Source: Candidatus Levyibacteriota bacterium
GTDB lineage: Bacteria > Patescibacteriota > Microgenomatia > Levybacterales > UBA12049
DNA length: 64,000 nt
NCBI GenBank assembly: GCA_016186645.1
Contig: JACPLF010000006.1
Coordinates: 124,808 to 188,807, forward strand
Direction: 5' to 3'
Shown: piece by piece, positions 9,213 to 38,746 of the stretch
Layout of the letters: each line of letters opens with the position of its first letter
Position numbering within the stretch: the first letter of the stretch is position 1
Notes under the pieces: generated by a model
Databases searched by the model: none
Seen by the model: the letters and a program-made list of their open reading frames with translations, nothing else
Told to the model about the DNA's origin: nothing
Program-made: the position numbers and the translations under genes

Positions 9213-9252
9213 TCTTGACAAAAGATTTAGTGTTGATACAATTAATTAAGGA

Positions 9253-9851: not shown

Positions 9852-9933
9852 AGCGGAGTTCTGCAAAGCAGAACGAGCTCGCCTGCGAAGCGAAAGCGAA
9901 GACAGGCGTGGCTGCCGCTAATCGCAGGCAGAT

Positions 9934-20752: not shown

Positions 20753-21736
20753 ATGAAGATTCCGCCGGTATATACGATTTCATGTAAAATGCTGTCGCTT
20801 ATCACCAAAATTGAGGCAGAAAGATTGCATTTTTCCTCTTTAAGTCTTCCTGAAGAGCTGAAAGAAAATATACAAAGAATAAGTCTTCTGAAAAGTTCCC
20901 TTTTTTCTGCTCGTATTGAAGGAAATCCGCTTAATGTCTCTGATTTTGAATATGGGGCAGAAGCGGAAGAAGAAAAGAAGAAAGAGATATTTAATATTCT
21001 TAAGGCAATAAATTTTATAGATAAAAATACAAAAAAGGGCATTACGAAAGATTTAATTTTACATTTACATGTCTTGGCTTTGAAGAATATCTCATCGAAT
21101 GGCGGTAATTTTCGAAATGAAGTAAGCGCGATTTTTAATCAGGCGGGAGTTGCTGTTTATATGCCGCCACCGCCATCCATGATCTCGAAATCGTTAAACG
21201 AACTCTTAATTTACATAAATTCAAAGACAGAAAAATTTCCTCTTATCACTTCTTTCACCGCGCATCTAATTTTCGAAAAAATTCATCCTTTTTTAGATGG
21301 AAATGGCAGAGTCGGCAGGCTTCTAATTTCGGCGATTCTAAAATCAAAAGGTTGGGATTTTACCTTTACGGTACCTTTTGAAGAATATCTTGAGGAACAT
21401 AAAGACGAATATTATTTTCATTTAAGTAGCGGATTGAAGAATGCCAATGATTATCTTGAATTTATGCTTGACGCATTCTACAAACAAATACAAAAAATAA
21501 AAGATCAGATTGATCAGGAAATTGCCAAAGAATCGCATCCATTCCTTCCGCCCCGTCAGGAAGAAATACTTAATATCATTAAAGATCAGATCGTTGTGTC
21601 TTTTGATATGATAAGAAGGCGATTCCTTCGGGTACCGCAAAGGACACTCCGCTGGGATCTAAAAAAACTTCTTGATAGAAGACTTATTGAAAAAAGCGGT
21701 GCAACAAGAGGAAGATATTACAGGATAAGAAAATAG
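20753..21736 (+). CDS. Fic family protein (class II, with N-terminal inhibitory motif)
   Basis: Fic motif HPFLDGNGRVGRLL. Upstream SARIEGN matches the [S/T]xxxE[G/N] auto-inhibition motif. Confidence 0.8.
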   Translation: MKIPPVYTISCKMLSLITKIEAERLHFSSLSLPEELKENIQRISLLKSSLFSARIEGNPLNVSDFEYGAEAEEEKKKEIFNILKAINFIDKNTKKGITKDLILHLHVLALKNISSNGGNFRNEVSAIFNQAGVAVYMPPPPSMISKSLNELLIYINSKTEKFPLITSFTAHLIFEKIHPFLDGNGRVGRLLISAILKSKGWDFTFTVPFEEYLEEHKDEYYFHLSSGLKNANDYLEFMLDAFYKQIQKIKDQIDQEIAKESHPFLPPRQEEILNIIKDQIVVSFDMIRRRFLRVPQRTLRWDLKKLLDRRLIEKSGATRGRYYRIRK

Positions 21737-22068: not shown

Positions 22069-23076
22069 ATGGCGCAGCTTTTGGGGCTAATTCTTTTGTC
22101 TCTTTTTATAACAGGAATTCTTCTCATACCCTTCATAGATTTTCTTTACAAAATGAAGCTAAGACGTGTCAAGCAGAAGACCGTTGACATGTTTGATAAG
22201 CCAACTCCCACATTTGACAAATTCAACAACTGGAAAGCAGGCACACCTTTTGGGGGTGGAATTTTAATTATTGCGGTAGTGTGCATACTCACTTTCTGGG
22301 CATATGGAATTCTGGAAACGAAAGTTAACGCTTGGCAGCTTTTCGTAATTATGGTTACATTTATTGGTTTTGGGCTTTTGGGTTTTTATGATGATCTGAA
22401 AAAACTGGTTCCAGGGCACAAGGTCTTTTTCGGCTTACGATTCAGGCATAAATTTATAATTCAGTGGATTTTGGCTCTTGTGATAGGAGCTATTTTGTAT
22501 TTTCAGCTTGGGTATTCTTATATTTTTATCTGGGGTTTTGGACTTGCATCCCTTGGGTATCTTTTTATTCCTTTTGCGGCTTTTGTTATCGTCTCTTTTG
22601 CGAACGCTTTTAATATTGCAGATGGTCTGGATGGGCTGGCGTCCGGACTTTTGTTAATTTGTCTTGCGGCTTTTTTGGCAATCACTTCTAATCAGTTGGA
22701 TCAGCCTTTGGGAATTTTTGTTGCCGTACTTATGGGAAGCGTTGGTGCTTTTCTGTACTTTAATATCTACAAGGCAAGGATTTGGTTAGGCGATGTTGGA
22801 GCCTTATCTTTGGGGGCAGTATTAGCTGTAATTGGACTTTTGACCGGAAAAATTATTGCGTTGGCATTTATTGGAGGAGTATTTGTCATAGAAATTGCAT
22901 CATCCTTAATTCAGATTCTTGCCAAAAAATTTCTTCACAGAAAAGTTTTCTTGGCATCTCCATTCCATCTGCTTTTGCAAAAGATAGGTTGGGATGAGCC
23001 AAAAATTGTTATGAGAGCATGGCTTTTGGGATTCCTTTTTGCTATCTTAGGGCTATACATCGCATTTATTAACTAA
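22069..23076 (+). CDS. mraY: phospho-N-acetylmuramoyl-pentapeptide transferase MraY
   Basis: Polytopic membrane protein with MraY-typical loops (NAFNIADGLDGLA and GDVGALSLG). Confidence 0.9.
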   Translation: MAQLLGLILLSLFITGILLIPFIDFLYKMKLRRVKQKTVDMFDKPTPTFDKFNNWKAGTPFGGGILIIAVVCILTFWAYGILETKVNAWQLFVIMVTFIGFGLLGFYDDLKKLVPGHKVFFGLRFRHKFIIQWILALVIGAILYFQLGYSYIFIWGFGLASLGYLFIPFAAFVIVSFANAFNIADGLDGLASGLLLICLAAFLAITSNQLDQPLGIFVAVLMGSVGAFLYFNIYKARIWLGDVGALSLGAVLAVIGLLTGKIIALAFIGGVFVIEIASSLIQILAKKFLHRKVFLASPFHLLLQKIGWDEPKIVMRAWLLGFLFAILGLYIAFIN

Positions 23077-23091
23077 CGTCTTCAAAAATCT

Positions 23092-24156
23092 ATGAAAAAA
23101 ATAGATATTTCCCTACTTTTTAGCGTAATTCTTCTGACTCTCTTTGGACTTTTCATGATTTTTGATGCATCAAGTTTTGTTGCGTTTAGGGATTTTGGGG
23201 ATAAATACCATTATGTAAAAGACCAATTTGGTTGGGTAGCACTGGGTTTTGTCGGATTAACTCTTTTCTCATATTTTGATTATCGCAAATTATATTCACT
23301 TGCTCTCCCCATTCTTTGTACGGCTTTGGTTTTACTTATTTTGGTTTTTGTTCCCGGAATAGGAATCAATATTTTGGGAGCAAGCCGTTGGATCAATACA
23401 GGACTAGTCACTATTCAGCCTGCAGAATTTGTAAAATTAGCATTGGCTATTTATCTGGCTGCATGGTTTTCAAACAAAGAAAAAGGAAGGCTTTTGGCAT
23501 TTTTGCTTTTGATGGGATTGGTCTTGGGGTTAGTAATGCTTGAGCCGGACATGGGCACTACAACTGTAATACTAAGTGAAGCTTTTGTGATTTATTTTTT
23601 GTCAGGAGCACGAATTATTTATTTTTCTCTAATAGTTCCTGTTGTGGCAATGTTGGGATTTTTATTTATAAAAATGTCTCCATACAGAGCGAAAAGACTT
23701 GAAGCATTTCTAAATATTGGCGATTCTATTGAGTCTTCTTCTTATCATGTCAAGCAAATTTTAATTGCGCTTGGCGCAGGAGGGTTAACCGGAGTGGGCC
23801 TTGGAAATTCTATACAAAAATATGCTTATCTTCCCGAAAGCACAACAGATTCGATTTTCGCAATTATCGCAGAGGAGTTAGGATTTATTGGCGCAACTGG
23901 ACTAATTATATTTTTTATTTTTATTTTTTCTCGATGTTTTTATATAGCTGTCAATGCAAAGGATAATTTTGGTAAACTTTTGGGGGCAGGAGTGACAACC
24001 TTTTTGGCAGTGCAAACAATTATAAATTTGGCAGCTCAAACAGCGCTGGTTCCTTTGACAGGAATACCTTTGCCCTTTATTTCTTATGGAGGATCTGCTC
24101 TAATTATTGATCTTGCTGCTGTGGGGATATTGTTGAATATCTCTAAAAATAGTTAA
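23092..24156 (+). CDS. ftsW: SEDS family peptidoglycan glycosyltransferase FtsW
   Basis: FtsW/RodA fold motifs (MLEPDMGT and DSIFAIIAEELGFIG). Located between mraY and murG. Confidence 0.8.
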   Translation: MKKIDISLLFSVILLTLFGLFMIFDASSFVAFRDFGDKYHYVKDQFGWVALGFVGLTLFSYFDYRKLYSLALPILCTALVLLILVFVPGIGINILGASRWINTGLVTIQPAEFVKLALAIYLAAWFSNKEKGRLLAFLLLMGLVLGLVMLEPDMGTTTVILSEAFVIYFLSGARIIYFSLIVPVVAMLGFLFIKMSPYRAKRLEAFLNIGDSIESSSYHVKQILIALGAGGLTGVGLGNSIQKYAYLPESTTDSIFAIIAEELGFIGATGLIIFFIFIFSRCFYIAVNAKDNFGKLLGAGVTTFLAVQTIINLAAQTALVPLTGIPLPFISYGGSALIIDLAAVGILLNISKNS

Positions 24157-24186
24157 AAATTCAAAATGCAAAATTCAAAATTACAA

Positions 24187-24219
24187 CGTAAAGTTGCGTG
24201 GCAACAACGTTGCTTTACG
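24187..24219 (+). repeat. GC-containing hairpin (CGTAAAG-TTGCGTG-GCAAC-AAC-GTTGC-TTTACG) flanked by 13-bp direct repeats AAAATTCAAAATT
   Basis: Inverted repeat seen directly. Flanking direct repeats lie at about 24158-24185 and 24224-24240. Confidence 0.45.
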
Positions 24220-24302
24220 CAATTTAAAATTCAAAATTTAGATTCTAAATTAAAAACTTTTAACTTTTCACTTTTAACTTTTAACTGGAGCGGAGGCGAC
24301 TT

Positions 24303-25436
24303 ATGAAAGTTGTTTTAATTGGCGGACATTTGTCTCCTGCACTTTCTGTTTTGGATGCGCTTCCCAAAGATACAGAAGTTCTTTTTATTGGGAGAAAATA
24401 TGCGTTTGAGGGGGACAATGCGTTATCTTTGGAATACAAAACAATTACTTCCATGCATGTTCCCTTTATCGGGTTAAACACGGGAAGATTACAACGCAAG
24501 ATAACTCGCTTTACTCTTTTTTCTCTTTTAAAGCTCCCTTTTGGAATTATTAAGTCCTTTTTCATTCTTATTGAATTCAGGCCTGATGTTGTTGTGGGGT
24601 TTGGAGGTTACGTTTCCGTTCCGGTCATCATTAGCGCTTTTGTTCTTCGAATTCCGGTTGTGATACATGAGCAAACCATGGAGGCAGGGCTTGGCAATAG
24701 GATAGTTTCCCGATTTGCAAAAAAGATTTGCATATCGTGGCAAACTTCAAGGATTTATTTTCCAAATAGTAAAATTGTCTTAACTGGAAATCCCATACGC
24801 AAATTTTCAATTTGGAATTCGCCGGCCGGCGGAAAATTCTCAATTTTCAACAATAAATTGCCGACAATCTATGTTACAGGAGGAAGTTCGGGATCGCATT
24901 TTATAAATGTAGCAATTGAAGGAGTAATCGAAGAACTTTTGAAAAAATATAATATTATTCATATGGTCGGAGACGCCCATGAATATCATGACTTTGATCG
25001 TTTGAAGCAATTAAGGGATGGTCTGCCCGTAAACCTTCGCGATAACTATATTTTGGAAAAATTCATTGAGCCTTCTGAAGTTGGAGATCTGATGAGGTCA
25101 TCTTCTCTAATTATTTCAAGATCAGGCATGAATATCGTCTCGGAACTTATATATTTTGAAAAACCCGCATTATTAATCCCTCTTCCTTTTTCTCAAAACA
25201 ATGAACAGTTAAAAAATGCCAGGTTTTTGCAAAATTTGGGAATTGGAAAAATTCTGCAGCAGAATGATGCAGATTCAAAAAAATTACTTCAGGCAATTAG
25301 TCTTATGTTTAATAATCTAGATAAGTATAAAATAAATGATCAAGAATTAAAAAAATTATCCTTAAAAAATGCAGCGCAAAATATAATTTCTGTTATTAAT
25401 TATGTTACAAAGCCCAAGACAAAGAAATTCCTTTAA
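24303..25436 (+). CDS. murG: undecaprenyldiphospho-muramoylpentapeptide beta-N-acetylglucosaminyltransferase MurG
   Basis: GT28 N-terminal G-loop (VVLIGGHLSPALSV) and C-terminal LLIPLPFSQNNEQLKNARFL. Confidence 0.8.
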   Translation: MKVVLIGGHLSPALSVLDALPKDTEVLFIGRKYAFEGDNALSLEYKTITSMHVPFIGLNTGRLQRKITRFTLFSLLKLPFGIIKSFFILIEFRPDVVVGFGGYVSVPVIISAFVLRIPVVIHEQTMEAGLGNRIVSRFAKKICISWQTSRIYFPNSKIVLTGNPIRKFSIWNSPAGGKFSIFNNKLPTIYVTGGSSGSHFINVAIEGVIEELLKKYNIIHMVGDAHEYHDFDRLKQLRDGLPVNLRDNYILEKFIEPSEVGDLMRSSSLIISRSGMNIVSELIYFEKPALLIPLPFSQNNEQLKNARFLQNLGIGKILQQNDADSKKLLQAISLMFNNLDKYKINDQELKKLSLKNAAQNIISVINYVTKPKTKKFL

Positions 25437-25800
25437 AAAAAAGATAGGTGTTTATATTTCGCTTCTTATAGTATTGGGTTTTCTTTTTTTTCTTGCTAAT
25501 TTATTTTTCCAAACAAAATCTTCCTCATTCATAAGTCCTTTGGGGACAAGTAATGTTGATAAAAGTAAAGTTGAGAAAATTTTGAAAGATAATAATATTG
25601 CATTTTCTGGAATTGTAGTTTTGGAAGACGCTTCTTATGGGATAAGTATCCCCAATAATGGACAAGTCAGACTTTCTTCCCAAAAAAACATTAACAAGCA
25701 AGTAGCCTCTTTACAAAGAATACTAAGAGAGCTTACAATAGAGGGAAAGCCATTTAAAAATATAGATTTTAGGTTCGAAGAGCCTATTATTTCCTATTAA
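25402..25800 (+). CDS. small single-pass membrane protein in the FtsQ/DivIB position
   Basis: 132 aa with a TM helix plus a short extracytoplasmic domain. Occupies the ftsQ slot but is far shorter than FtsQ. Confidence 0.3.
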   Translation: MLQSPRQRNSFKKKIGVYISLLIVLGFLFFLANLFFQTKSSSFISPLGTSNVDKSKVEKILKDNNIAFSGIVVLEDASYGISIPNNGQVRLSSQKNINKQVASLQRILRELTIEGKPFKNIDFRFEEPIISY

Positions 25801-25808
25801 TCAAAAGT

Positions 25809-27101
25809 ATGGTAGATGGAAAAATAGTCGTAGGTGTTGATATCGGTACCTCAAAAATTGTTACTATTATTGCAAGAGTAGAGAATGAAATTGCAAATGT
25901 GTTGGGAGTTTCAGAAGTTGCCTCCCGAGGCGTTAAAAAAGGCCAAATAGTAGACATAAAAGAAGCAGTTGAATCTATTAATAATTCACTTGATGGAGCC
26001 GAAAGAATGGCTGGCTACTCTGTCTCTCATGTGGCTGCTTCAATCGGCGGAGGACATATTGAGTCTCAAAATTCAAGAGGCGTTGTTGCAGTATCATCTC
26101 CTCAAGGGGAAATAACCGAAAGTGATCTTGCTCGCGTAATTGATGCGGCTAAAGCAGTTTCTCTTCCATCGAGCCGCCAAATTGTTCATGTTTTGCCTCG
26201 TAATTATGTTGTTGATGGACAAGAAGGAATAAAAGATCCAATTAGTATGACTGGGATAAGGCTTGAGGTAGATACTCATATTATCTCAGCTGCTTCCACG
26301 TCTTTAATGAATTTAGAAAAAGCTTTTTCCCAGGTTGGTATCGATATTGATGGGGTTGCTTTCAGCGGATATGCATCCAGCCTTTCGGTTTTGTCGGAAA
26401 CGGAAAAAGAATTAGGAGTTGTATGCGTAGATATTGGAGCGGGAACAACAGACATATCGATTTATTCGGAAGGATCAGTCGCATATTCTTCCGTATTACC
26501 AATTGGCGCCAGACATATAACAAATGATTTAGCAATAGGTCTTAGAATTTCTTTGGAGAGCTCTGAAAAAATTAAAATTTATTTATCCAATACCCGAAAA
26601 AACCCAAAAATAGAAAGACTTGGAGAAACATTTGAAAAAGAAAATATAAATAGAGATGAAGTAGACTTAAGCTCTCTAGGTCTGCCGGAGGATCTTAGAA
26701 AAGTTTCTCACAAAACATTAACAGATGGAATAATTAGGCCTCGGCTTAATGAAATTTTTACCATGATAGGAATAGAAATTAAAAGGTCAGGATACGCGGG
26801 ACAAACACCTGCGGGGATTGTAATAACAGGAGGCGGAGCGTTAACTGTTGGAATAGCAGATAGCGCCAAAAGAACTTTGGCAATGCCGGTCAGAATTGGG
26901 CTGCCAATTAATATAAAGGGCCTAATTGATGAAATAGAAACCCCTGCTTTCGCAACTGTTGTAGGGCTTGCGGTTTTCGGCGGCAGTCTTGATGTGAGAA
27001 AATCTTTGCCTTTCGGAATTAGTCTTCCTTCCTTGGGAAATTTGGGATTTAACAAAGCGCTTTCCCGTCTTATAAATTTAATCAAATCCTTCATGCCATA
27101 A
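25809..27101 (+). CDS. ftsA: cell division protein FtsA
   Basis: Actin-like ATPase motifs (VVGVDIGTSKIV and CVDIGAGTTDISIY). C-terminal amphipathic ...LINLIKSFMP*. Confidence 0.85.
   Translation: MVDGKIVVGVDIGTSKIVTIIARVENEIANVLGVSEVASRGVKKGQIVDIKEAVESINNSLDGAERMAGYSVSHVAASIGGGHIESQNSRGVVAVSSPQGEITESDLARVIDAAKAVSLPSSRQIVHVLPRNYVVDGQEGIKDPISMTGIRLEVDTHIISAASTSLMNLEKAFSQVGIDIDGVAFSGYASSLSVLSETEKELGVVCVDIGAGTTDISIYSEGSVAYSSVLPIGARHITNDLAIGLRISLESSEKIKIYLSNTRKNPKIERLGETFEKENINRDEVDLSSLGLPEDLRKVSHKTLTDGIIRPRLNEIFTMIGIEIKRSGYAGQTPAGIVITGGGALTVGIADSAKRTLAMPVRIGLPINIKGLIDEIETPAFATVVGLAVFGGSLDVRKSLPFGISLPSLGNLGFNKALSRLINLIKSFMP
27081..27101. repeat. ftsA 3'-end sequence ATCAAATCCTTCATGCCATAA (copy A, inside ftsA)
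   Basis: Direct repeat with 34138-34161 and 34971-34995. Confidence 0.6.
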
Positions 27102-27143
27102 CAGAATATTGCAAAGGAAGTTTTGAGTGTTGTAAAATAAATT

Positions 27144-30100
27144 ATGCCAGTAGATATGACACCAGAAACAGAAAGCGGACATCATCCTAATGGAGAGGGG
27201 GGGGCAGAATCCCCTTTGCCGGAGATAAGGCTGACCCAAGTTGTTAAATCGGCATCTCCAGTTGTTCCAGAAAGAATTTTAAGGGAAAAGACCATGGAAG
27301 AAAAAGCCTTGCTCGTGCCTTACGGGGAATACACGTTTCTTATTGTAAGGGATTCCGGCAGAATTGCTCTTTTGGACGCAAATGGCAAGAATGTAGAGGA
27401 ATTTGCCAACTTGGGGTCAACGATGATTCTTGATTGGGATAGTATCAGAACGAAGAGGGTTACACGAATAACTAGATTAACAGCAGCCGGGAAAGAAGAA
27501 ATTAGTGTGCATGAATTGAAAGATCCAAAATTAAAGAGAGCGGCTAGTGAGAAATTCAGCTATTTAAACGTAGATTCTATGGAAATTCCACCTCCATGGA
27601 AATTGGACGATTCTCATCCCGGACAGATTCATTTCTCCATTTCTAGAAATGGTATTATTTTTGGCTCAGGTGAAATAGTGGGTTTTCGTACAACGGACGA
27701 GCATGATATTCCTTATCCTGTTCGAAACTGGATAAGGACAGATAATGCTAGTGTTGATTTTAAAGATAGACTGTTTTTGCAAAATATGGCGATTGGGCTT
27801 CCTACACTTACTAAAGAAGTGGCAAAATTGCCGCGCGGTGTTGATGCGTTTGGCAGAACGGAGTATATAGTAAACGCTTCGGATGAACTTACGCTTCATT
27901 TGGGTGATGACAAGAAGGTTTACTTGGGGCGCGTAGACGCGGGAGGACGTATCTGTGTTGATCCTACGGAGAAAGATGCAGTTTACTTTCTAAGCCAGCA
28001 AAATCCTACTTATTTACTCAAGATAGATGCATCAGCGGAGCGCATTTCACAGAGACAGCGATTGGAAGCTCAACATTTACCTTTCCCTAGAGATTTTGGT
28101 GCGGTTAAATCCATATCCATTGATCCGCAAGGCAGCTTTTTCATGCTAGAAACAGATAAGGGAATCGTTCTTCTGGAAAAAGGTACACTTAAGGAGTTGA
28201 AGGATGCTCCTGGTTTTTCTTCGGCGCATTTTGATTCAAAAGGAAGAATAGTTGCTCTAGATAACAATGGGTACTTTGTTATATTGCAGCCGGATTTAGA
28301 GGAGTATCGTAGAGCAATTGAAAAGGCAAAGATGGAAGGGATTGTCAGAGGAGCAACAGCGGATTTATTTGGAAAAGAAGAAGCTGAAACCGGAAAGGTT
28401 GATGTCGATAAATTTAAGCATCTGTTGCCAATAAGGACAAATTTGCAAAATGATTTCGATCCTCAGATACGTAAAATCAAAACTTTTAGTGAGACAACCG
28501 CAATTTCACGAGCTCTGGATACATTAAGATCCCGCCTTGGGTCCCAAGGACTAAATCCCGAACAAGTATTATTTATCACAAAAGGAATAGAAGAGGCAAT
28601 ACGAGCTAAACAACAGGAATTGGCTATGCCATTGGTTGTTCAAGGATTGGCGGATTTACAGGGCAAGCTTTCAGGAGACTTAACTGTAGCTGTTCTTTCT
28701 GAAGCCAGAGACGATCTTACCAAATTAAAATCTTTGGAAGGGTTCGTTGATGAAGGGACGCGCGCCAAAATAATTGCTTTGGAAAAACAATTAAGTACGC
28801 AGAGCTCTGAGTTTTTTCGTAGAGAAAGCCCGGTGATTGAAAAATATGGTAGCGATATTGTGCAAAGGGAAATAACAAGACTTGTACAGATAACAAGTAA
28901 ACCTGATTTTGACGATTGGCAAGAACATACATTGCCTCAGCAGTTAAGGAGGCTAACGGAATTGATCAATAATTATCCGCCAGACGCTCCTTCAGAGACA
29001 TTAGAGAGACTTCTGTCTTTTAGCAAGCAACTGCGGGACATGGCTAGGGAATATGAGATTAAATTTAAAGAAAGATATGCGGAGGTTCGTCAAAGGGGAT
29101 CTGTAATAATGGGTGAAAGAGTAGGATTAATTGAATCAGACATAGTTTCGTTTGCTGAAAGACTTAGAGGTAGAGGTTTTAAGGATAGGATGCAGGCAGA
29201 AACTCATATTGGATCAAGTGAGGCATTGGGAATCCTTCGATCTGACATTGAAGAGCTTGCAAGGCAAAATCCGGATGCAGCAAGAGAGTTAGATAGGACA
29301 CTGAAAGCGCAAATTGCCAACATAATGTTTGAAATTGAGCGTGGCGGGCTGACAACAATTGCAGAAACTGGTCAGCAAATGGAGTTATTTGGAAAGACTC
29401 TATTTCCAAGATGGGAAGCCCCAATCAAAGAAAAGACTCAAAAAAAAGTTGATCTTATTTTTATCCCGAATGAAAGATCAGAAGGCCCAGGAATTTCTCC
29501 AGATAGAATTTACGGCGATGTGGGGCTTGCTGTTATAAATTCACGGGGCAAGGTAGCAAGAGTAAGACTTTTTGAGGGATGGGAGAAGGAGAATGCAGTT
29601 AGATTGGGCATATTGCCTTTAATTCCACCATCCTATGTTACGTATGCTGAGTTTGGGGAAATAAGAAAGGCATATATGGACTGGAATATCGGAGAGAAAT
29701 CAAAGATTCGGCAAGAGCTTGCCCAAAGAAGCAACGTGCTTCGGGAGTGGCGAAAAGCAAGACTAGGGCAACACAAATCTCCTCAGGAAGAGGAAGAATG
29801 GAAAGACTTACTTAGAGATTATGTAAGTTTTTATGCTGAAAATTATATCTCTATTTTGCATCGTGTGGATCGTGTAAAAAAAGCTCCGGAGGGCGAGTAC
29901 GAGAATGGAAAAGGTTTTGTTCCTGAGTGGCAAAGCCATTGGACAGTAGACGAAACCACAGAGCACTATTTGGAAGAAATGGCTAAGGCTTCCGGAATGC
30001 AGCTTGATTTACAAGAAGGCTTACTTAATCTTAAGGGGCATGCGGGAACAGGAAAAGACGTACTCGTAAAAATGTTTAGCAATCGAACAAACAGGCCTTA

Positions 30101-30998
30101 TTTTACAATTGACTGCTCAAAATGGACAACAGAGTTCGAACTTTCAGAAGACGTAGTGCTTGAAGCAGAAGACGGCGCGTCAAAAACAGTAAAAGTCCCA
30201 TCAGTTGTTTTAAACGCTATAACAACCCCTGGTGCAATTATGTACTTCAATGAGATTAACGCCATGCCGGAACAGGCACAGATTTTCCTGCATGGATTAA
30301 TGGATGAAAAAAGAACATTGACTCTCAAAACAAGTTCGGGAAAAGCGGTTAAAACTTTGCCTAGTGTGCTTTTGATGGGGTCGATGAATCCGGGATATCC
30401 GGGCACGTTTAATCCCCAATTTGCAACTAAGAGTAGAATGGTTGGACTAGAAATAGATTACCCTCCATTATATGGAGAAAGAGGAACAAACGATCCTAAT
30501 CCAAACCCTCCAATAAGCGCTGCTGAGGCATTACGGGTTGCTCGACAAGTTGATTCATTGGCTGATTTTACCTATGAAGCCAATCCTAAGCACAATGAAT
30601 TCGTACGAATATGGGACAGGTATGTTAATGGGATTCAAAATGGAGCGCCTGACTTAAATCAAGTACAAAGATTTGATGTTGAAGCTATTTTGACAATGGT
30701 GGAGTTTGCACAAAAACTTAGGGAAGGATTTATACTGAAGTTTGAAAAAGCAAGGGCATCGTCAATTCCTAAGGGAACACTTTTAGTTGATCAGCCAATA
30801 ACAGGAAGAGAAATGAGAAGAATGGCTTACTTTTTAAGCAAAATGTCTCCAGAGGAAAAGGCAACAGCTAATCCAGAAGCAGTAATAAGAAGTCTTATTG
30901 AAAGATTCTTCCTGTCCCATATTGATAAGAAAGATGAGAGGGATGAAATAAGAACAGCAATGGCTACTTGGACGTCGTCCAAGAGACCGGCAGCTTAG
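27144..30998 (+). CDS. giant (1284 aa) protein with a C-terminal MoxR/AAA_5-class AAA+ ATPase domain and a roughly 900-aa unassigned N-terminal region
   Basis: P-loop GHAGTGKD, Walker-B-like IMYFNEIN, FLHGLMDEKRTLT and sensor region LLMGSMNPGYPGT align to MoxR-family signatures. No signal peptide. Confidence 0.65.
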   Translation: MPVDMTPETESGHHPNGEGGAESPLPEIRLTQVVKSASPVVPERILREKTMEEKALLVPYGEYTFLIVRDSGRIALLDANGKNVEEFANLGSTMILDWDSIRTKRVTRITRLTAAGKEEISVHELKDPKLKRAASEKFSYLNVDSMEIPPPWKLDDSHPGQIHFSISRNGIIFGSGEIVGFRTTDEHDIPYPVRNWIRTDNASVDFKDRLFLQNMAIGLPTLTKEVAKLPRGVDAFGRTEYIVNASDELTLHLGDDKKVYLGRVDAGGRICVDPTEKDAVYFLSQQNPTYLLKIDASAERISQRQRLEAQHLPFPRDFGAVKSISIDPQGSFFMLETDKGIVLLEKGTLKELKDAPGFSSAHFDSKGRIVALDNNGYFVILQPDLEEYRRAIEKAKMEGIVRGATADLFGKEEAETGKVDVDKFKHLLPIRTNLQNDFDPQIRKIKTFSETTAISRALDTLRSRLGSQGLNPEQVLFITKGIEEAIRAKQQELAMPLVVQGLADLQGKLSGDLTVAVLSEARDDLTKLKSLEGFVDEGTRAKIIALEKQLSTQSSEFFRRESPVIEKYGSDIVQREITRLVQITSKPDFDDWQEHTLPQQLRRLTELINNYPPDAPSETLERLLSFSKQLRDMAREYEIKFKERYAEVRQRGSVIMGERVGLIESDIVSFAERLRGRGFKDRMQAETHIGSSEALGILRSDIEELARQNPDAARELDRTLKAQIANIMFEIERGGLTTIAETGQQMELFGKTLFPRWEAPIKEKTQKKVDLIFIPNERSEGPGISPDRIYGDVGLAVINSRGKVARVRLFEGWEKENAVRLGILPLIPPSYVTYAEFGEIRKAYMDWNIGEKSKIRQELAQRSNVLREWRKARLGQHKSPQEEEEWKDLLRDYVSFYAENYISILHRVDRVKKAPEGEYENGKGFVPEWQSHWTVDETTEHYLEEMAKASGMQLDLQEGLLNLKGHAGTGKDVLVKMFSNRTNRPYFTIDCSKWTTEFELSEDVVLEAEDGASKTVKVPSVVLNAITTPGAIMYFNEINAMPEQAQIFLHGLMDEKRTLTLKTSSGKAVKTLPSVLLMGSMNPGYPGTFNPQFATKSRMVGLEIDYPPLYGERGTNDPNPNPPISAAEALRVARQVDSLADFTYEANPKHNEFVRIWDRYVNGIQNGAPDLNQVQRFDVEAILTMVEFAQKLREGFILKFEKARASSIPKGTLLVDQPITGREMRRMAYFLSKMSPEEKATANPEAVIRSLIERFFLSHIDKKDERDEIRTAMATWTSSKRPAA

Positions 30999-31013
30999 TT
31001 ATGCAATACAGAT

Positions 31014-34000
31014 ATGGATATGGATACAGAAAGAGGAGAAATACCGCGACCTCCGCAGAAAGATGGACTTGCTAGAGAAAAAATTTTTCTCGCAGAGCAA
31101 GCCTCGGAAGGTGATTTAAAAGTAGTCCCCGGAAAAAATTGGGCGTTCCACTATCCTCACGGTGCGCAAGCACGATCTGATGCCATTTCTGGTCTGCTTG
31201 ATGGGCGGACTAAGCCGGAAGATGTACTTGGTGATTTAAAACCAGACGCCTTTACCTATGATGTTGCTGATCTTGAACATCAAGGTTTAGTTTCGGTTGC
31301 TGGAAGAGTTAGAGATGTTTCGGCATATGTAACTCATTATGATTATTCCCGATTTGCTCAGTTTGTAGCTAGCTTGCAGGGAACAGGTATAACTCCTGAT
31401 ACAGCTCAATCTCTTTATGATGGTATAGCTCAAAACAGAATCCGTAAAAAAATGATCGAGGCTTATGGATATACAGGCAGAAAGCAAATGGAAGAAGCTC
31501 TTAAGTTGGAAGCAGAGAGAGCTGTACAGCAAATTGGCAGCCTTCCTCGCGTTGAGAAAGTGTTGGCGGCCTTAAAAATGAACTGGATGGCCGAAGATCA
31601 GCTTGCTAGAACTGAGCAAAGAGATCAAACAGTAGGACAACTGTCTCCTGATGAGCGTCAGCTTTATGATCTGCTGAGAGATCCTTACCAAGACTACGTA
31701 AGAAGGGGTGATCAATCTGCTTATGAAAGTTTGGTAAATGGGGTAAAAGAGAATATCCCTAAAATTCAACAAGAGCCAGAGAAGCCAGAGGAACCGCAAA
31801 GGGATGAAGCTCAGGAGAAGCTTGAAGAAGAATTGGAAGAATATAAAGATGAAGCGGTGCCGCCCGTTACTCCTGGAGATCCGGGAATTCCGCCTGAAGA
31901 TTCTGACGAATACCATACTCCTTCATCTCCCCCATGGGAATCTGAAGAGGAAGCATCTTCCCATCCGTATTTTGAAATAACTCCAAATGGAACGAGTACT
32001 AAGCCAATGACAGGATATTATGCAAGCGGCAGAAAAAGCCATTACGACATTGATCAAAAAACATGGAGTAAGAAAAAGCAACTCGTTTCTTATGGTGCAA
32101 ATATAAATGGGAATGAAAGGCAAACTATTTCGGCAACAGTAGGCAAGGGGCTTACATCTATACCTATACCAAATGGGTACGGATTGGATATGCAGTCTCT
32201 CAAATTCACAGGTGACAGGCCTGAAATTTTCAGAGATCAAAATGGATGTTTTTATATAAAAACTGATGGAGGCAGTACGTTTTCAATAGATTTCTTAAAA
32301 GAAAATCCTGTTTTTTCTGGTTCCCCAATAGCAGATGATATAGTGCCTATCCATAGAGGACAGCTTTCTATAGAGACGGAAAACGCAATGACTGGTTTAG
32401 TTGGCAGCGATTTAGAAAAAGCAGAAGCGCTTCGCAAATATTTACTCTCAAAACATTTTTATCCCGGCGATGGTGATTTGCAAATGGCGCAGGCTTTGCA
32501 GCTTAAGCTAAGAAGTGAGTCTGCAGGAGACAATTATATTCAAAATCTTGACAAATCGGAGTATCTTGAATGCTATTCTGCGAATACGCTTTTTATAGCA
32601 ATGCTCAGGAAAATTGGTATTCCCGCAAGATTAGTTATTGGCCACCGAGTAGAAAACGCAAAAAATGGCAAAGCAAGCATTAATTCAACTACCGGTCACG
32701 CTTGGACTGAAGTATGGGATGGTAGTGCTTGGAGAAGAATGGATGCAACGCCACGACCAAAACAGCAAAAGAAAGATCAAAAGGGCGATTCAAATTCTCC
32801 TACTCAGGAAGCGCAGGATGGAGGGATTGAAGGACAAGGTCAGCCACAGCAAGATCAACCTCAGCAGGGGCAAGGTAGTCAATCTGGCGAGTCAATGCCA
32901 GGTCAGCAAATGGGTGAAGCTTCCGACCAAGACATAGCTCAAGGAGAATCACAACTTGACAATGCCCAACAATTTTCGGAGCATTTGGAGCAGGAAAAGC
33001 AAAGCTTAGACCAAAAACTTGAAAATGCGGAGTCCTTCCAAGATTTAAAGAAGTTAGAGCAGGAAGCTCAGGAGTCTGATTTGTTTGATGACATGAAACA
33101 AGATTTACAAGACAGGTTAGAAGCAAAAGAGGAGCAGATGAAAGAAGCAATTAAAGAAAATCTTGATGAAATGGTACAAGACGGATTTTTAGATGAGGAG
33201 AGGAGACAGGAACTTGAGAGACAGCTTGAAGAAAATAAATTAGAAGAACTCGATCGAATTAGACAGCAAATTGAGCGGGAAAGCAGGTTATTTAATGAGT
33301 ACCAAGATATCAAGGAAGAAGTAGCGCCTTTGGTTGATCAGTGGTTTGATTACTTTGTAGAACGATTGCCAAGGCAGAAAGAAGTTGAGCTGGATGAAGA
33401 TTCACTTACCCGACAGGGGGCTTTCAATAGACATTCTGTAATGAAACCAAGGAATTTGCTTTTCGGAACTGTTAAAAATCCCCGAGTTATTAAGCCGTCA
33501 ATTAAACCAAAATTTTTAGCTTCAGTTATGGTTGACGTAAGCGGTTCAATGGCTGGAGAGAAGTTAAATATGGCAAGGAAACAATTGGTTTTCTATAATG
33601 AACTCTTTTCAAGGATTAGCAGTGAATTTGGTTTTATAAGGTATGCAAATAACATCTTTTCTGATAATTTAGTTGAACTCAAAACTTACGATCAAGATTA
33701 TGAAAGTCCTGTAAGATACGATTGGGGAGATGGTACTCGGTCAACAATTAAAGCGCGTCTTATGCAAGCGCTTCATACACAAGGAGGGACAAATATGCTC
33801 CCGGCAATTCAAAAAGCAGCAGCAGATTTAAATAAAGAAACATTTGAGTATCCAGATTATGCTTCTGCTTTTTATTTTGTTGGAGATGGGGAAGATACAT
33901 CTGGAAATTCAGCGAGAATTAAAGAGTTTTTAGGATTACTGGATTCTGAACATGGATTCGGAGAACATATGCTATCAGCAATAATGCTAGGAGATGAATC

Positions 34001-34136
34001 TCAAAGAAGAGGATTGGCCGCTATTTTTGGAGATGAACATACAACAGTTGCTCCAGATTTTGAAGCTTTGATCGAACAAAGTATGTACAAATTTGATGAA
34101 GACATAGAAGCGTATTTACGAGATAAAACTATATAA
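31014..34136 (+). CDS. giant (1040 aa) transglutaminase-like, coiled-coil and von Willebrand factor A (MIDAS) fusion protein
   Basis: Transglutaminase core Cys-His-Asp context (ECYSANTLFIAMLRKIGIPARLVIGH...GHAWTEVWDG...RMDATP). Q/E/D-rich low-complexity linker and a heptad-like charged region. vWA MIDAS motifs DVSGSM, GGTN and GDGEDT. Confidence 0.7.
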   Translation: MDMDTERGEIPRPPQKDGLAREKIFLAEQASEGDLKVVPGKNWAFHYPHGAQARSDAISGLLDGRTKPEDVLGDLKPDAFTYDVADLEHQGLVSVAGRVRDVSAYVTHYDYSRFAQFVASLQGTGITPDTAQSLYDGIAQNRIRKKMIEAYGYTGRKQMEEALKLEAERAVQQIGSLPRVEKVLAALKMNWMAEDQLARTEQRDQTVGQLSPDERQLYDLLRDPYQDYVRRGDQSAYESLVNGVKENIPKIQQEPEKPEEPQRDEAQEKLEEELEEYKDEAVPPVTPGDPGIPPEDSDEYHTPSSPPWESEEEASSHPYFEITPNGTSTKPMTGYYASGRKSHYDIDQKTWSKKKQLVSYGANINGNERQTISATVGKGLTSIPIPNGYGLDMQSLKFTGDRPEIFRDQNGCFYIKTDGGSTFSIDFLKENPVFSGSPIADDIVPIHRGQLSIETENAMTGLVGSDLEKAEALRKYLLSKHFYPGDGDLQMAQALQLKLRSESAGDNYIQNLDKSEYLECYSANTLFIAMLRKIGIPARLVIGHRVENAKNGKASINSTTGHAWTEVWDGSAWRRMDATPRPKQQKKDQKGDSNSPTQEAQDGGIEGQGQPQQDQPQQGQGSQSGESMPGQQMGEASDQDIAQGESQLDNAQQFSEHLEQEKQSLDQKLENAESFQDLKKLEQEAQESDLFDDMKQDLQDRLEAKEEQMKEAIKENLDEMVQDGFLDEERRQELERQLEENKLEELDRIRQQIERESRLFNEYQDIKEEVAPLVDQWFDYFVERLPRQKEVELDEDSLTRQGAFNRHSVMKPRNLLFGTVKNPRVIKPSIKPKFLASVMVDVSGSMAGEKLNMARKQLVFYNELFSRISSEFGFIRYANNIFSDNLVELKTYDQDYESPVRYDWGDGTRSTIKARLMQALHTQGGTNMLPAIQKAAADLNKETFEYPDYASAFYFVGDGEDTSGNSARIKEFLGLLDSEHGFGEHMLSAIMLGDESQRRGLAAIFGDEHTTVAPDFEALIEQSMYKFDEDIEAYLRDKTI

Positions 34137-34137
34137 A

Positions 34138-34161
34138 CTCGTCAAATCCTTCCTGCCCTAA
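34138..34161. repeat. ftsA 3'-end-like direct repeat copy B (CTCGTCAAATCCTTCCTGCCCTAA)
   Basis: Non-coding copy 2 nt after the vWA gene stop. Would encode LVKSFLP*, compared with the ftsA C-terminus IKSFMP*. Confidence 0.6.
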
Positions 34162-34183
34162 AAACTTTTGATATAATCATCCC

Positions 34184-34627
34184 ATGATCGAAAGACAGCC
34201 CTATGTGGAGCGTTATCAGGTCATGACTCCGCAGCAACGAAATGCGGAAATGAAAGGGTTATTTGCACTTCTTCCAGATGCCGACGTAACTTGGTCAGCT
34301 TTTCAGGGATTATTAGAATTGTTACAGCCCGAGGATATAAAAGAAAGACTTGCTTCTATAGATCTACATTTTGCAGAGAAAAAAGATATTTCTGATCATA
34401 GGAGAGCTTCTGTATTAAGACAGAATTTGACCGTGCGGCTAAATACTCTGTTGTCTTTTTCAATGATTACAGATGCCTTTAAAGTCTGTATCGCTGATGT
34501 GTTTAATCACAATTTTGACGTAGGCGTAAGTGAAGAAACATTAGTAGGTTGGATATTCCCCAGTGGAAGAAAATGGTATGCAGATTTGTTCCAATGGGAC
34601 CAATTAGAGAACGGTGGGATATTTTGA
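34184..34627 (+). CDS. hypothetical protein (147 aa)
   Basis: ORF lying between repeat copies B and C. No motif recognised. Confidence 0.35.
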   Translation: MIERQPYVERYQVMTPQQRNAEMKGLFALLPDADVTWSAFQGLLELLQPEDIKERLASIDLHFAEKKDISDHRRASVLRQNLTVRLNTLLSFSMITDAFKVCIADVFNHNFDVGVSEETLVGWIFPSGRKWYADLFQWDQLENGGIF

Positions 34628-34823
34628 TAGACAACAAGCAAGAAAGATAGAGCAGGAAGCGTATGTGTCTGCAATCGATCAGTATTTGAGACAGGAACTA
34701 CCTTATGAAGAAGAACAGGATGAGCCATTGGATGAAGAAAGCTTGGAAAATGAACGAAAACAAAAAGAAATTATTGAGAGATGGAGAGGTGAATTTATTC
34801 AGCGCTATGGTGACGAGCCTTAA
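34614..34823 (+). CDS. small acidic hypothetical protein (69 aa), possibly the frameshifted continuation of the previous ORF
   Basis: Starts 14 nt before the previous ORF's stop in another frame. Highly acidic (EEEQDEPLDEESLENE). Confidence 0.3.
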   Translation: MGYFDRQQARKIEQEAYVSAIDQYLRQELPYEEEQDEPLDEESLENERKQKEIIERWRGEFIQRYGDEP

Positions 34824-34970
34824 AATCTGAATAAGTTTTGATGTTTCCTCCAAAGGCGGACAGGTCGAAAGATTGAAACGAATTCATTTTCTTTTTTGTT
34901 ATCTCCATACCCGTACAACATTACGCTATAGCGTATCACTGTACCAGCACTAACTTTTTAAGCTATAAAA

Positions 34971-34995
34971 CTTCGTCAAATCCTTCATGCCATAA
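34971..34995. repeat. ftsA 3'-end-like direct repeat copy C (CTTCGTCAAATCCTTCATGCCATAA)
   Basis: Non-coding copy about 60 nt upstream of purN. Preceded by the 14-bp palindrome TACGCTATAGCGTA at 34922-34935. Confidence 0.6.
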
Positions 34996-35056
34996 TCCCC
35001 TTGCTTTTTAGTTTTTGTTTGCTAATATAAGTTAAACTGCTTCAGAGTATTTTGCG

Positions 35057-35785
35057 ATGAAAGAAAGATTGGCGACTTTAATTTCAGGGGGCGGTACCAC
35101 AATGCAAGCAATCATAGAAGCTTGTCAATCCGGAGAAGTTCCAATGGATATTGCTTGTGTTATTTCCAGCAGTCCTACTGCTGGCGGAATAGAAAAAGCA
35201 AAGCGCTTAGGAATTCCGGACAAAGATATTGTTGTGATTGATCCAAATAAATTTAAGGGTAGAGATAAAAAAATGGATCAAGACGCATTCGGTTTTGCAA
35301 TTTTACAAACACTACGAAAACGCGGGGTAACTGTTGTTACTCAAAATGGCTGGCTGCCCCTAACTCCACAAAGTGTTATAGATGAATATTCAGATGCGAT
35401 ATTTAATCAACACCCAGGCCCGGTACCGGAATTTGGAGGCAAAGGAATGTATGGGAGAAGAGTGCATGCCGCAAGATTGTTGTTTGTTCGGGAAACGAGA
35501 AGAAATTTTTGGACAGAGGCTATTGCTCAAAGAGTCCATAGAAATTTTGATCAAGGATCAGCAGTTAAATCTGAGCAAGTTGATATTCTTCCGGATGATA
35601 CAGCTGAAGATTTACAAAAAAGAGTTTTGCCAATTGAGCATCGAGTGCAAATTGAATTACTTAAGGATGTTGCTCGCGGCAATGTTAAGGAAGTAACAGG
35701 AAGGGAAAAACTTGTACGTCCCGGAGAAGAAAGAATTTTATTTCAGGCAAAAAAAGCAGCAAGATTATTGTATCCGTATGGATAA
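35057..35785 (+). CDS. purN: phosphoribosylglycinamide formyltransferase PurN-like
   Basis: N-terminal ISGGGTTMQAII loop and formyl-transferase fold order. 242 aa. Confidence 0.7.
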   Translation: MKERLATLISGGGTTMQAIIEACQSGEVPMDIACVISSSPTAGGIEKAKRLGIPDKDIVVIDPNKFKGRDKKMDQDAFGFAILQTLRKRGVTVVTQNGWLPLTPQSVIDEYSDAIFNQHPGPVPEFGGKGMYGRRVHAARLLFVRETRRNFWTEAIAQRVHRNFDQGSAVKSEQVDILPDDTAEDLQKRVLPIEHRVQIELLKDVARGNVKEVTGREKLVRPGEERILFQAKKAARLLYPYG

Positions 35786-36893
35786 ACGCAGGGGAAAGAA
35801 AATAACGTATAAATCATCAGGAGTTAATTATCAGGATTTGGATCCTGTGAAAAAACTTGCGCAAAAGGGAGCTTTAAAAACTGCGAGAAATCTTAGGAAA
35901 AACGGATATAAAGAAATTTCTGAGAGCCGAGGAGAATCTGCATTTGTTTGGCAGCAAGGTAATTTTTTGATGGCATCTGTCATTGAAGGACTTGGAACGA
36001 AAAATCTTGTTGCAGATATAACAGCGCAAATTACCGGCAAATCTTATTACGATATTATTGGCCACGATACTGTTGCAACAATAATAAATGATCTGATTGC
36101 TGTCGGAGCAAAACCGTTGACTATAAGTGCGTATTGGGCGGTAGGCCAAAGCGATTGGTTTAAGAATAAAAAAAGGACAAAAGATTTAATAAGGGGATGG
36201 AAAAGAGCATGCAATCTGGCGGGTGTTACGTGGGGCGGCGGAGAAACGCCAACTCTAAAAGGAATAATTCGGGAAGAATCAATAGATCTGGGAGGGTCTG
36301 CGATTGGAATTATTTCTCTAAAGAAAAATCTTATTACGGATAAAAAATTAAAAATTGGCGATAGAATAATACTTTTAAGAAGCAATGGAATAAATGCAAA
36401 TGGATTGTCATTGGCCCGAGCGCTTGCAAAAAATTTACCAAAAGGTTATGCAACAAAACTTCCAAGTGGAAAAATTTATGGAGAAGCGCTTCTTGCAAAA
36501 ACAAATATTTATGCAAAATTAATACAGGATTTGCTAAATGCAGGAATTGACATTCACTATATTTCAAACATAACAGGACATGGACTGCGAAAAATAATGC
36601 GGGCTCGTTTAAATTTTACTTATATAATTGAAAAAATATTTAATCCTCAAGAAATATTTTTATTTATCCAAAAGCACGCAAATTTATCCTCTTACGAAAT
36701 GTATCAAACATTCAATATGGGAATGGATTATGCTTTATTTATTCCTAAAAAAGATATTGAAAAAGCACAAAAAATTATAACTAAAAATAAATTGGAAAGT
36801 ATAGATGCCGGACGAGTTGAGGAAGGAAAAAAACAAGTTGTGATAAAACCAAAAAACATTATTTTTAATGCAGAGACATTGGGAGTTAGATAA
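35778..36893 (+). CDS. purM: phosphoribosylformylglycinamidine cyclo-ligase (AIR synthase) PurM-like
   Basis: Collinear PurM motifs (YKSSGVNYQDL, IEGLGTKNL, GGGETPTLKG, NITGHGLRK and MYQTFNMGMDY). ATG overlaps the purN stop (ATGGATAA). Confidence 0.75.
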   Translation: MDKRRGKKITYKSSGVNYQDLDPVKKLAQKGALKTARNLRKNGYKEISESRGESAFVWQQGNFLMASVIEGLGTKNLVADITAQITGKSYYDIIGHDTVATIINDLIAVGAKPLTISAYWAVGQSDWFKNKKRTKDLIRGWKRACNLAGVTWGGGETPTLKGIIREESIDLGGSAIGIISLKKNLITDKKLKIGDRIILLRSNGINANGLSLARALAKNLPKGYATKLPSGKIYGEALLAKTNIYAKLIQDLLNAGIDIHYISNITGHGLRKIMRARLNFTYIIEKIFNPQEIFLFIQKHANLSSYEMYQTFNMGMDYALFIPKKDIEKAQKIITKNKLESIDAGRVEEGKKQVVIKPKNIIFNAETLGVR

Positions 36894-36949
36894 ATTGTTC
36901 CATTGACTTTTGGAAAACAGGATGTTAGGATAAGTTGATTCCTTAATAT

Positions 36950-38209: not shown

Positions 38210-38746
38210 GTGAAGCAAAAATGTATAATTCTAATCGATGGAAGTAACTTTTATTTCAAGCTTAAAGATTTAGACCTACACAATCTTTTATCTTTTGACT
38301 TCAGTCTTTTCATTCAGCTTATTGCCAGGTCTTGCAAAGTTGTAAATGCATGTTACTATGTTGGCCGAATTAGACAAGATGGAAGCAGTAAAACCAATAA
38401 ACTTTTTGATAGCCAACAAAAATTGCTTGGTAATCTTAAGAAGCATAGTATTTCATATCAGTTTGGTTACTTATTAAAAAGCGGAGGAGCGTATCATGAA
38501 AAAGGTGTTGATGTACAGATTGCAGTAGATATGTTGGTTTCTGCTTACGAAAATGTTGCGGATCGGATTATTCTTGTCTCTTCCGATACTGATTTAGCGC
38601 CTGCAATCAAAAAGGTGCGTGAAAAAGGGAAAATCGTAGAATACATAGGATTTTCCCACAAACCGAGTGTCGCAATGGTTAGTTTTTGTTCGGAATCAAC
38701 ATTATTAAAAAAAGAGGATTTACTACCTTTTATCAAATCTAAATAA
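38210..38746 (+). CDS. NYN/LabA-like (PIN-fold) domain protein
   Basis: CIILIDGSNF start, KGVDVQIAVDM and ILVSSDTDLAPAI motifs typical of LabA/NYN domains. Confidence 0.6.
   Translation: MKQKCIILIDGSNFYFKLKDLDLHNLLSFDFSLFIQLIARSCKVVNACYYVGRIRQDGSSKTNKLFDSQQKLLGNLKKHSISYQFGYLLKSGGAYHEKGVDVQIAVDMLVSAYENVADRIILVSSDTDLAPAIKKVREKGKIVEYIGFSHKPSVAMVSFCSESTLLKKEDLLPFIKSK

Follow-up and report, generated by a model that had tools for sequence, protein, structure and literature searches.

The window analysed here is a 64,000-nucleotide stretch of DNA from a Candidatus Levyibacteriota bacterium (GenBank assembly GCA_016186645.1, contig JACPLF010000006.1, positions 124,808 to 188,807 of the forward strand), and all coordinates below refer to it. 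It carries a gene for a 1284-amino-acid (aa) AAA+ ATPase with two non-canonical residues in its nucleotide-binding site, followed directly by a gene for a partner protein with a transglutaminase-like core and a C-terminal VWA domain. An earlier note, made from the letters alone, had described a MoxR-like ATPase at 30025-30470 with a GKD P-loop and an Asn-Glu (NE) Walker B motif, and had placed both substitutions at positions that coordinate Mg-ATP. The ATPase gene contains the following features.

27144..30998, + strand: ATPase gene, an open reading frame (ORF) of 1284 aa, with an N-terminal region of about 920 aa and then a C-terminal AAA+ module (core plus lid)
30030..30440, + strand: AAA+ core α/β domain, AAA_5, CbbQ/NorQ-like, aa 963-1099 (Pfam)
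30036..30059, + strand: Walker A or P-loop, GHAGTGK-D, aa 965-972 (translation, PDB alignment, AlphaFold2 model)
30144..30200, + strand: β-hairpin inserted in helix 2, aa about 1001-1019, with strands at aa 1001-1007 and 1013-1019 (DSSP of the AlphaFold2 model)
30237..30254, + strand: Walker B, IMYF-N-E, aa 1032-1037 (translation, PDB alignment, AlphaFold2 model)
30315..30368, + strand: pre-sensor-1 region, TLTLKTSSGKAVKTLPSV, aa about 1058-1075, a probable β-hairpin, aligned with the pre-sensor-1 of CbbQ/NorQ
30387..30389, + strand: sensor-1 Asn1082 in SMNPGYPGT, at the C-terminal end of β4 in the model, aligned with SYNPGY of CbbQ
30435..30437, + strand: putative arginine finger, Arg1098 in ATKSRM, directly N-terminal to β5, aligned with STKQRF of CbbQ
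30474..30995, + strand: helical lid and C-terminal domain, aa about 1111-1284 (AlphaFold2 helices)
30807-30809, + strand: candidate sensor-2-like Arg1222 in QPITGREMRR

Both unusual residues were read directly from the DNA. Lys971 (AAA, 30054-30056) is followed by Asp972 (GAC, 30057-30059) at K+1, the position that usually holds a Mg-binding Ser or Thr; the P-loop Gly and Lys are retained. In Walker B, Asn1036 (AAT, 30249-30251) stands in place of the conserved Asp, and the catalytic Glu1037 (GAG, 30252-30254) is retained. The ORF is 100% identical to the NCBI entry 'AAA family ATPase [Candidatus Levybacteria bacterium]'. Pfam assigns aa 963-1099 to AAA_5 (E 3.6e-15, 56.6 bits against a cut-off of 22) and reports a weak Sigma54_activat match over aa 962-1061 (E 7e-4). 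The only strong matches to PDB sequences found by phmmer are CbbQ (6l1q, 5c3c) and NorQ (9qh4, 9qhd), at E 1e-10 to 1e-12. In these alignments GHAGTGKD falls on GPTGCGK[ST], and YFNEI on YLDEI of CbbQ/NorQ; the NorQ PDB chains carry an engineered Glu-to-Gln substitution in Walker B and hence read YLDQV. The segments LMDEKRTLT and MNPGYPGT, taken beforehand for conserved MoxR hallmarks, indeed have counterparts in CbbQ, LMDEKRTLT aligning with LTDHRRTLPL and SMNPGYPGT with SYNPGYQ.

The predicted structure agrees with this assignment. An AlphaFold2 model covering aa 921-1284, a ligand-free prediction made with 30 homologues in the alignment (mean predicted local distance difference test score, pLDDT, 87.9), places the P-loop between β1 (aa 960-964) and α1 and makes Asn1036 the final residue of β3 (aa 1032-1036). 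The helix-2 hairpin (strands at model residues 81-87 and 93-99) lies between β2 and β3; such an insert defines the MoxR/dynein clade (PMC13036017, PMC7159879). The pre-sensor-1 segment is only partly strand in the model (aa 1061-1063). A Foldseek comparison of the model with the PDB ranked NorQ 9qh9 and CbbQ 6l1q first (E about 2e-13) and dynein motor domains next. Arg1098 matches the description of the MoxR arginine finger as preceding strand 5 (PMC7159879). By profile score, fold, helix-2 insert, sensor-1 Asn, arginine finger and VWA partner, the ATPase is a MoxR-clade AAA+ protein close to CbbQ and NorQ, and two motif-level marks of that clade, a canonical GK[ST] Walker A and an hhhhDE Walker B, are missing from it. 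The phmmer alignment shows no misplaced motif, and a regular-expression scan found neither [AG]xxxxGK[ST] nor hhhhD[DE] anywhere in the 1284 aa. The earlier note thus had the motifs right in the DNA, the PDB alignment and the model; the range that it gave corresponds to the α/β core of the AAA+ domain, and both substitutions sit at Mg-ATP ligand positions in the sequence alignment as well as in the predicted fold.

We then asked how far the two residues are shared. A word-index search with the C-terminal 364 aa gave 29 proteins at 47-87% identity, and all those covering both sites read GHAG[TS]GKD and [FL]NE. Full-length and N-terminal-profile queries of a 5.8-billion-protein index recovered the query only, among 8000 candidates, probably owing to coiled-coil or low-complexity words. 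An exhaustive HMMER scan, run on 1.84 billion representatives of clusters made at 50% identity, returned 740 proteins at E<1e-3, and the top hundred or so are about 1270-1330 aa long with the same architecture as the 1284-aa ATPase. States at the two sites, written below as K+1/Walker B residue (D/N for the window protein), were counted on the family hidden Markov model alignment of the best 150 of the 740 matches plus the first 29 relatives; 155 representatives cover both sites.

D/N: 99, plus 2 among truncated or degenerate matches
N/D: 43
D/G: 3
D/D: 2-3
N/N, N/E, N/T and D/E: 1 each
T/D (canonical): 1

The Asp at K+1 and the Asn in Walker B are invariant in the main family, both in the 99/99 representatives covering the two sites and in 35/35 gene copies (33 GTDB species genomes plus the window). 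In these gene copies Asp972 is encoded by GAT 25 times and GAC 10 times, and Asn1036 by AAT 27 times and AAC 8 times. Since the synonymous codons vary and the amino acid never does, both sites are under purifying selection at the protein level, and such invariance excludes chance and sequencing error. That the unusual residues come from misaligned motifs, a decaying pseudogene, or an error of sequencing or assembly therefore has next to no probability: independent sequence and structure alignments agree, no other canonical motif exists in the protein, the ORF is intact at 1284 aa, and 35 genome copies and about 100 metagenomic representatives all keep the two residues. Judged by these alignments, the Asp(K+1)/Asn(Walker B) pair is a trait of the family and not decay or error.

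The D/N family was found only in genomes of Patescibacteria, also called the candidate phyla radiation (CPR), where the 33 related loci are spread over Levy-, Roizman-, Pacei-, Taylor-, Kerfeld-, Peri- and Peregrinibacteria and other metagenome-assembled genomes (MAGs) of Patescibacteria. Some MAG titles say otherwise: L001, L003, L006, L009, L017, L030 and L033 are labelled 'uncultured Gammaproteobacteria' or 'Methyloversatilis', and L032 'Sulfotelmatobacter', and the gene content of these loci is CPR-like. Such titles are probably placeholders, wrong labels or the result of bin contamination, and were not counted as occurrence outside Patescibacteria. One Peribacteria-labelled MAG (L031) carries two tandem full-length paralogues, at 2726-6682 (1319 aa) and 7091-11083 (1331 aa) of that locus, both with GKD and FNE and with a single partner gene after them.

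The rest of the active site has been kept. Every sequence covering the site has the Walker A Lys; the Walker B Glu occurs in at least 99% (the exceptions being a few truncated or degenerate matches), the sensor-1 Asn in 165/167 and the arginine finger in 166/167 aligned sequences. The features expected of a pseudo-AAA+ protein are thus not found: P-loop Lys, Walker B Glu, sensor 1, arginine finger and lid are all retained, and conservation at the site is not relaxed. One relative shows what degeneration looks like. P0106, a metagenomic protein of 897 aa, reads GHTATGKD; its Walker B (IDTIN) no longer has the Glu, Gln occupies sensor 1, and the arginine finger is gone. It is likely to be a true pseudo-ATPase within the same family. 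That these residues disappeared together in P0106 indicates that they decay when catalysis is not needed.

A second tier of matches bears a mirror image of the swap. These proteins are about 1140 aa long (E 1e-29 to 1e-17; one example comes from an Oligoflexia MAG) and combine GEAGTGK-N with h-D-E, so that in this N/D clade the carboxylate and the amide have exchanged places relative to the D/N family. The torsin-type arrangement, which pairs Asn at K+1 with the usual Walker B Asp, is seen in the 1140-aa clade and not in the window protein. When 101 D/N and 43 N/D sequences were compared column by column, K971, E1037, N1039, R1057, N1082, R1098, R1193 and R1222 proved common to both. Arg1057, just before the pre-sensor-1 region, is 100% conserved in the two clades, R1222 93-100% and R1193 98%; the other differences at strongly conserved columns are few and conservative. 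At the second P-loop position (aa 966, nucleotides 30039-30041) the D/N family has His (GHAG), the N/D clade has Glu or Asp (GEAG/GDAG), and CbbQ and NorQ have Pro; this residue is a second unusual feature of the nucleotide pocket.

The two sites appear to have changed together more than once. In a neighbour-joining tree of the AAA+ core, built without the K+1 and Walker B columns and rooted on the single canonical T/D sequence, a large CPR D/N clade is accompanied by a second D/N clade (P0120, P0131, P0135, P0139) that lies beside the N/D clade. Within the N/D clade are a D/G trio (P0148, P0151, P0174), a D/N protein (P0147) that is sister to a D/D protein (P0142), and another D/D protein (P0170). 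On this rough tree, Asp at K+1 seems to be gained where the Walker B Asp is lost in approximately three places at least, and D/D looks like a plausible intermediate in the relocation of the carboxylate. Every step is a single-nucleotide change, from ACN to AAY to GAY at K+1 and from GAY to AAY or GGY in Walker B. In nearly every sequence exactly one carboxylate is found across the pair, which suggests that a metal site has been maintained.

In canonical P-loop NTPases Mg2+ is bound directly by the hydroxyl of the K+1 Ser/Thr, which also forms a hydrogen bond with the Walker B Asp; this Asp in turn reaches Mg2+ by way of water. The two residues have been called strictly conserved, the listed exceptions being Asn (torsinA, DnaC) or Gly (NMP kinases) at K+1, Glu in Walker B, and MglA (bioRxiv 10.1101/2022.06.23.497301). 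Against this background, the window protein is probably, though far from certainly, a working, nucleotide-dependent AAA+ module whose single Walker B carboxylate has moved to K+1 of Walker A. The strict conservation of the swapped residues argues for a site that was rewired and works, rather than one that is dead. Asp972 would bind Mg2+ directly in place of the Ser/Thr hydroxyl, and Asn1036, at the old Asp position, would donate a hydrogen bond to Asp972 or to a Mg-bound water. The two would form an isosteric mirror of the pair Asn(K+1)...Asp(Walker B) found in torsinA and the N/D clade, and one negative charge would be retained beside the metal. Lys971, Glu1037 (activating water), Asn1082 (sensor 1), Arg1098 (the finger reaching in from the neighbouring subunit) and Arg1222 would act as in NorQ/CbbQ. 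Retention of Glu1037, Asn1082, Arg1098 and Arg1222 makes sense only if ATP is still hydrolysed, or at least sensed between subunits. Turnover is probably slow and dependent on the partner, by analogy with NorQ. Motif identity, fold, conservation, covariation and the obligatory partner are what the analysis shows, whereas the Mg2+ geometry, hydrolysis, ring formation and remodelling are inferred.

Several points weigh against a relocated, functional carboxylate. As a rule, a P-loop ATPase whose Walker B Asp alone is changed to Asn no longer hydrolyses ATP. TorsinA and DnaC, the closest analogues that have Asn at K+1, show very little ATPase activity, and opinion is divided on whether to regard them as enzymes or as switches. 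The D/D, N/N and N/T sequences break the one-carboxylate rule. Finally, the number of coupled events is approximate, since the tree is a rough one, made by a distance method with a single canonical outgroup from the best 150 of 740 matches. We put forward only tentatively, as a possibility to be taken nearly as seriously as its opposite, the further proposal that an Asp(K+1)-Asn(Walker B) pair has replaced the [Ser/Thr]-Asp pair in a fully active enzyme, repeatedly, within one MoxR-like clade, the route leading, for example, from N/D through D/D to either D/N or D/G.

The main rival is a nucleotide-binding switch or pseudo-ATPase, which would bind ATP and perhaps oligomerise and bind the VWA partner in an ATP-dependent manner. 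Loss of the Walker B Asp would have cut its hydrolysis to almost nothing, leaving a scaffold or timer in place of a motor. In its favour, neither of the canonical Mg ligand positions has its usual residue, the normally hydrolysis-dead Walker B mutants and the debated torsinA and DnaC point the same way, and there is a precedent in PcdA of Staphylococcus aureus, an AAA_5/McrB-type protein that evolved into a weak NTPase switch and, in degenerating, lost its P-loop, Walker B Glu and lid (PMC10602043). Degeneration of the PcdA type is nevertheless not seen here, where the sole degenerate relative, P0106, loses its residues together. A pure binder would have no need of the catalytic Glu, sensor-1 Asn, arginine finger and sensor-2 Arg, yet these are 93-100% conserved in about 150 divergent representatives, and the retention of exactly one carboxylate across the pair suggests a metal site that is being maintained. 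We therefore regard a switch as unlikely, while granting it some weight. The earlier note had left two options side by side. Its ATPase with unusual metal coordination is favoured by the invariance of the other catalytic residues, the purifying selection on both sites and the covariation with the N/D clade; its pseudo-ATPase that keeps only partner-binding surfaces is disfavoured, because P0106 shows how decay looks in this family.

A slimmer chance attaches to a change of cofactor, in which the site would be tuned to Mn2+ or Ca2+, or to another nucleotide such as the GTP used by McrB, instead of Mg-ATP. A direct Asp ligand would alter the charge and geometry of the first shell, the AAA_5 group includes the GTP-specific McrB, and the second P-loop position is unusual as well; the sequence, however, points to no particular metal or base, no GTP signature of the McrB type came to light (none was sought), and the closest structural relatives, NorQ and CbbQ, use ATP. 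A changed cofactor is compatible with a relocated carboxylate and partly overlaps with it.

Sigma-54 activators are catalytically active ATPases. These enhancer-binding proteins (NtrC/PspF/CbrB) resemble the window protein in that a large family has an acidic K+1, which shows that an acidic residue there is compatible with catalysis. They differ in having Glu at K+1 and keeping the Walker B Asp, as in the rare D/D state (their motifs read GESGTGKE with LFLDE; PMC8871633), in belonging to another clade and in lacking a VWA partner; a literature search turned up nothing useful on what the K+1 Glu does in PspF. TorsinA and DnaC are alike in the length of the side chain that replaces Ser/Thr at K+1, which is that of Asp/Asn. 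In structure 5J1S of torsinA, Asn109 (K+1) makes the canonical hydrogen bond to the Walker B Asp170 (bioRxiv 10.1101/2022.06.23.497301); the N/D clade has this arrangement and the window protein its mirror image. TorsinA and DnaC belong to other AAA+ clades, so that the likeness is mechanistic only. Torsin, moreover, keeps the Walker B Asp and has no arginine finger of its own, whereas the window family has Asn in Walker B and keeps the finger. In the GTPase MglA, the Walker B Asp has become Thr, the carboxylate has moved to the neighbouring WB+1 strand, and function is kept (bioRxiv 10.1101/2022.06.23.497301). There too the carboxylate is lost from its usual place and supplied from elsewhere, although MglA is a TRAFAC GTPase rather than an AAA+ protein and its relocated Asp is not in the P-loop. 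These acidic and amide precedents at K+1 (GKE in sigma-54 activators, GKN in torsin and DnaC), the coupled nature of the swap and its standing as a phylum-wide family trait all go beyond the earlier note.

Each half of the swap thus has precedents. The swap as a whole is clean and recurrent, and useful as a natural experiment. The hydrogen-bonded Ser/Thr-Asp pair has been proposed to act as the proton trap of catalysis (bioRxiv 10.1101/2022.06.23.497301). The D/N family, the N/D clade and the rare intermediates put the carboxylate on either side of the pair with the rest of the site unchanged; if the relocation is real, they are natural 'swap mutants' for asking whether the Walker B carboxylate is a proton acceptor or merely a charge near Mg2+. 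Annotation pipelines and motif filters that demand GK[ST] and hhhhDE would misclassify these proteins as inactive. A literature search whose coverage left out most subscription journals found no paper on a GKD Walker A P-loop, and the Asp(K+1)/Asn(Walker B) AAA+ family and its CPR module are absent from the survey of P-loop exceptions (bioRxiv 10.1101/2022.06.23.497301) and from the survey of MoxR-vWA systems (PMC7159879).

The partner gene lies directly downstream and has the following features.

31014..34136, + strand: partner gene, 1040 aa, transglutaminase-like core plus C-terminal VWA (Pfam)
32568-32747, + strand: transglutaminase-like core, partner aa 519-578, triad Cys520/His562/Asp577
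33525-33944, + strand: VWA domain, partner aa 838-977, with an adhesion site dependent on metal ions (MIDAS), D841-x-S843-x-S845, T926, D958

The pairing is constant: in all 31 of the 33 related loci that have a full-length downstream gene, the partner directly follows the ATPase, and the triad and MIDAS residues are invariant in the 30-32 orthologues covering them. Clustering of all flanking ORFs in the related loci revealed no third conserved gene near the pair. In the N/D clade a homologous VWA protein is encoded upstream; in locus L034 its VWA is 25% identical to that of the window partner, and the protein has no transglutaminase domain. Prediction found no hydrophobic segment of transmembrane strength in the ATPase or the partner.

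The module resembles CbbQ/NorQ systems in the helix-2 β-hairpin, the pre-sensor-1 region, the sensor-1 Asn in xNPGY, the Arg before β5 and an adjacent gene for a VWA protein (CbbO/NorD there), with a complete MIDAS in the window partner. It differs in having GKD and NE in place of GK[ST] and DE, and in size, CbbQ and NorQ being about 270-380 aa long whereas the AAA+ module here ends an uncharacterised extension of about 920 aa. Unlike CbbO and NorD, the partner fuses a transglutaminase-like domain to its VWA, and the module shows no link to Rubisco or NO reductase. The same three components occur in one operon in MoxR - DUF58/VWA - transglutaminase (TgpA-type) triads and in the Bat operon. Those MoxR proteins are of the AAA_3 type with canonical motifs, and the transglutaminase proteins are usually membrane-bound, whereas the window proteins have no predicted transmembrane segment and unite transglutaminase and VWA in one polypeptide. 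In NorQ-NorD, the AAA+ hexamer takes a VWA 'finger' into its pore and remodels the partner by a movement that ATP drives; NorQ's turnover is low, about 13 ATP per minute for each hexamer (PMC13036017). By this analogy, the ATPase ring would engage the VWA domain of the adjacent protein and would probably use ATP to remodel or activate the transglutaminase-VWA protein or its client. Partner aa about 580-800 (32750-33420) comprise a Gln/Glu/Asp-rich low-complexity stretch and then a highly charged, probably coiled-coil segment. Lying between the transglutaminase core and the VWA, this region may be the counterpart of the NorD linker that is remodelled. The ATPase and the transglutaminase-VWA protein together constitute an uncharacterised, phylum-wide, conserved two-gene module of Patescibacteria, and that such tiny genomes spend about 7 kb on it suggests an important function.

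The N-terminal region of the ATPase (aa 1-920, 27144-29903) is conserved in the alignment of orthologues, at 21-43% identity. It matches no Pfam family, and a 27-sequence profile of these 920 or so aa found no PDB sequence. A poor single-sequence AlphaFold2 prediction (pLDDT 37.9), which supports no fold, suggests at most a β-rich region at about 50-380, a long helical one at about 385-750 and a small β unit at about 770-810. Residues invariant among the orthologues include W196, D273, D295, D327, G330, G743, R808 and W847, and a highly conserved block at aa about 740-835 (GQQMxxFG..FPxWE...GPG...GD...GK...R..EG) stands just ahead of the AAA+ module.

In the window, the pair is set in a division and cell-wall cluster (22069-38062) in the order MraY, FtsW, MurG, FtsA, ATPase, transglutaminase-VWA, PurN, PurM, FtsZ, with ftsA upstream of the pair and ftsZ 3 kb downstream. 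In L004, also from Levybacteria, ftsZ directly follows the partner gene; the linkage to ftsZ is not present in the other 32 loci. A general link to cell division was rejected on these grounds, ftsZ being near in L004 alone among the related loci and no third flanking gene being conserved, and the linkage to the division cluster is probably lineage-specific. PcdA, the AAA_5/McrB-type protein mentioned above, binds FtsZ (PMC10602043), and a division link is worth keeping in mind. A reading as a defence system or mobile element received no support from PADLOC, in which the ATPase matched nothing and the partner matched only TerY (VWA), marginally, nor from IMG/VR, where no relatives were found on viral contigs. 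The G+C content of the two-gene module (27144-34136) is about 41%, against 36% for the whole window, which could reflect strong coding constraint or a foreign origin. A Fic/DOC-family protein is encoded at 20753-21736, upstream of the division cluster, and an NYN-domain protein, a predicted RNase, at 38210-38746, just after ftsZ.

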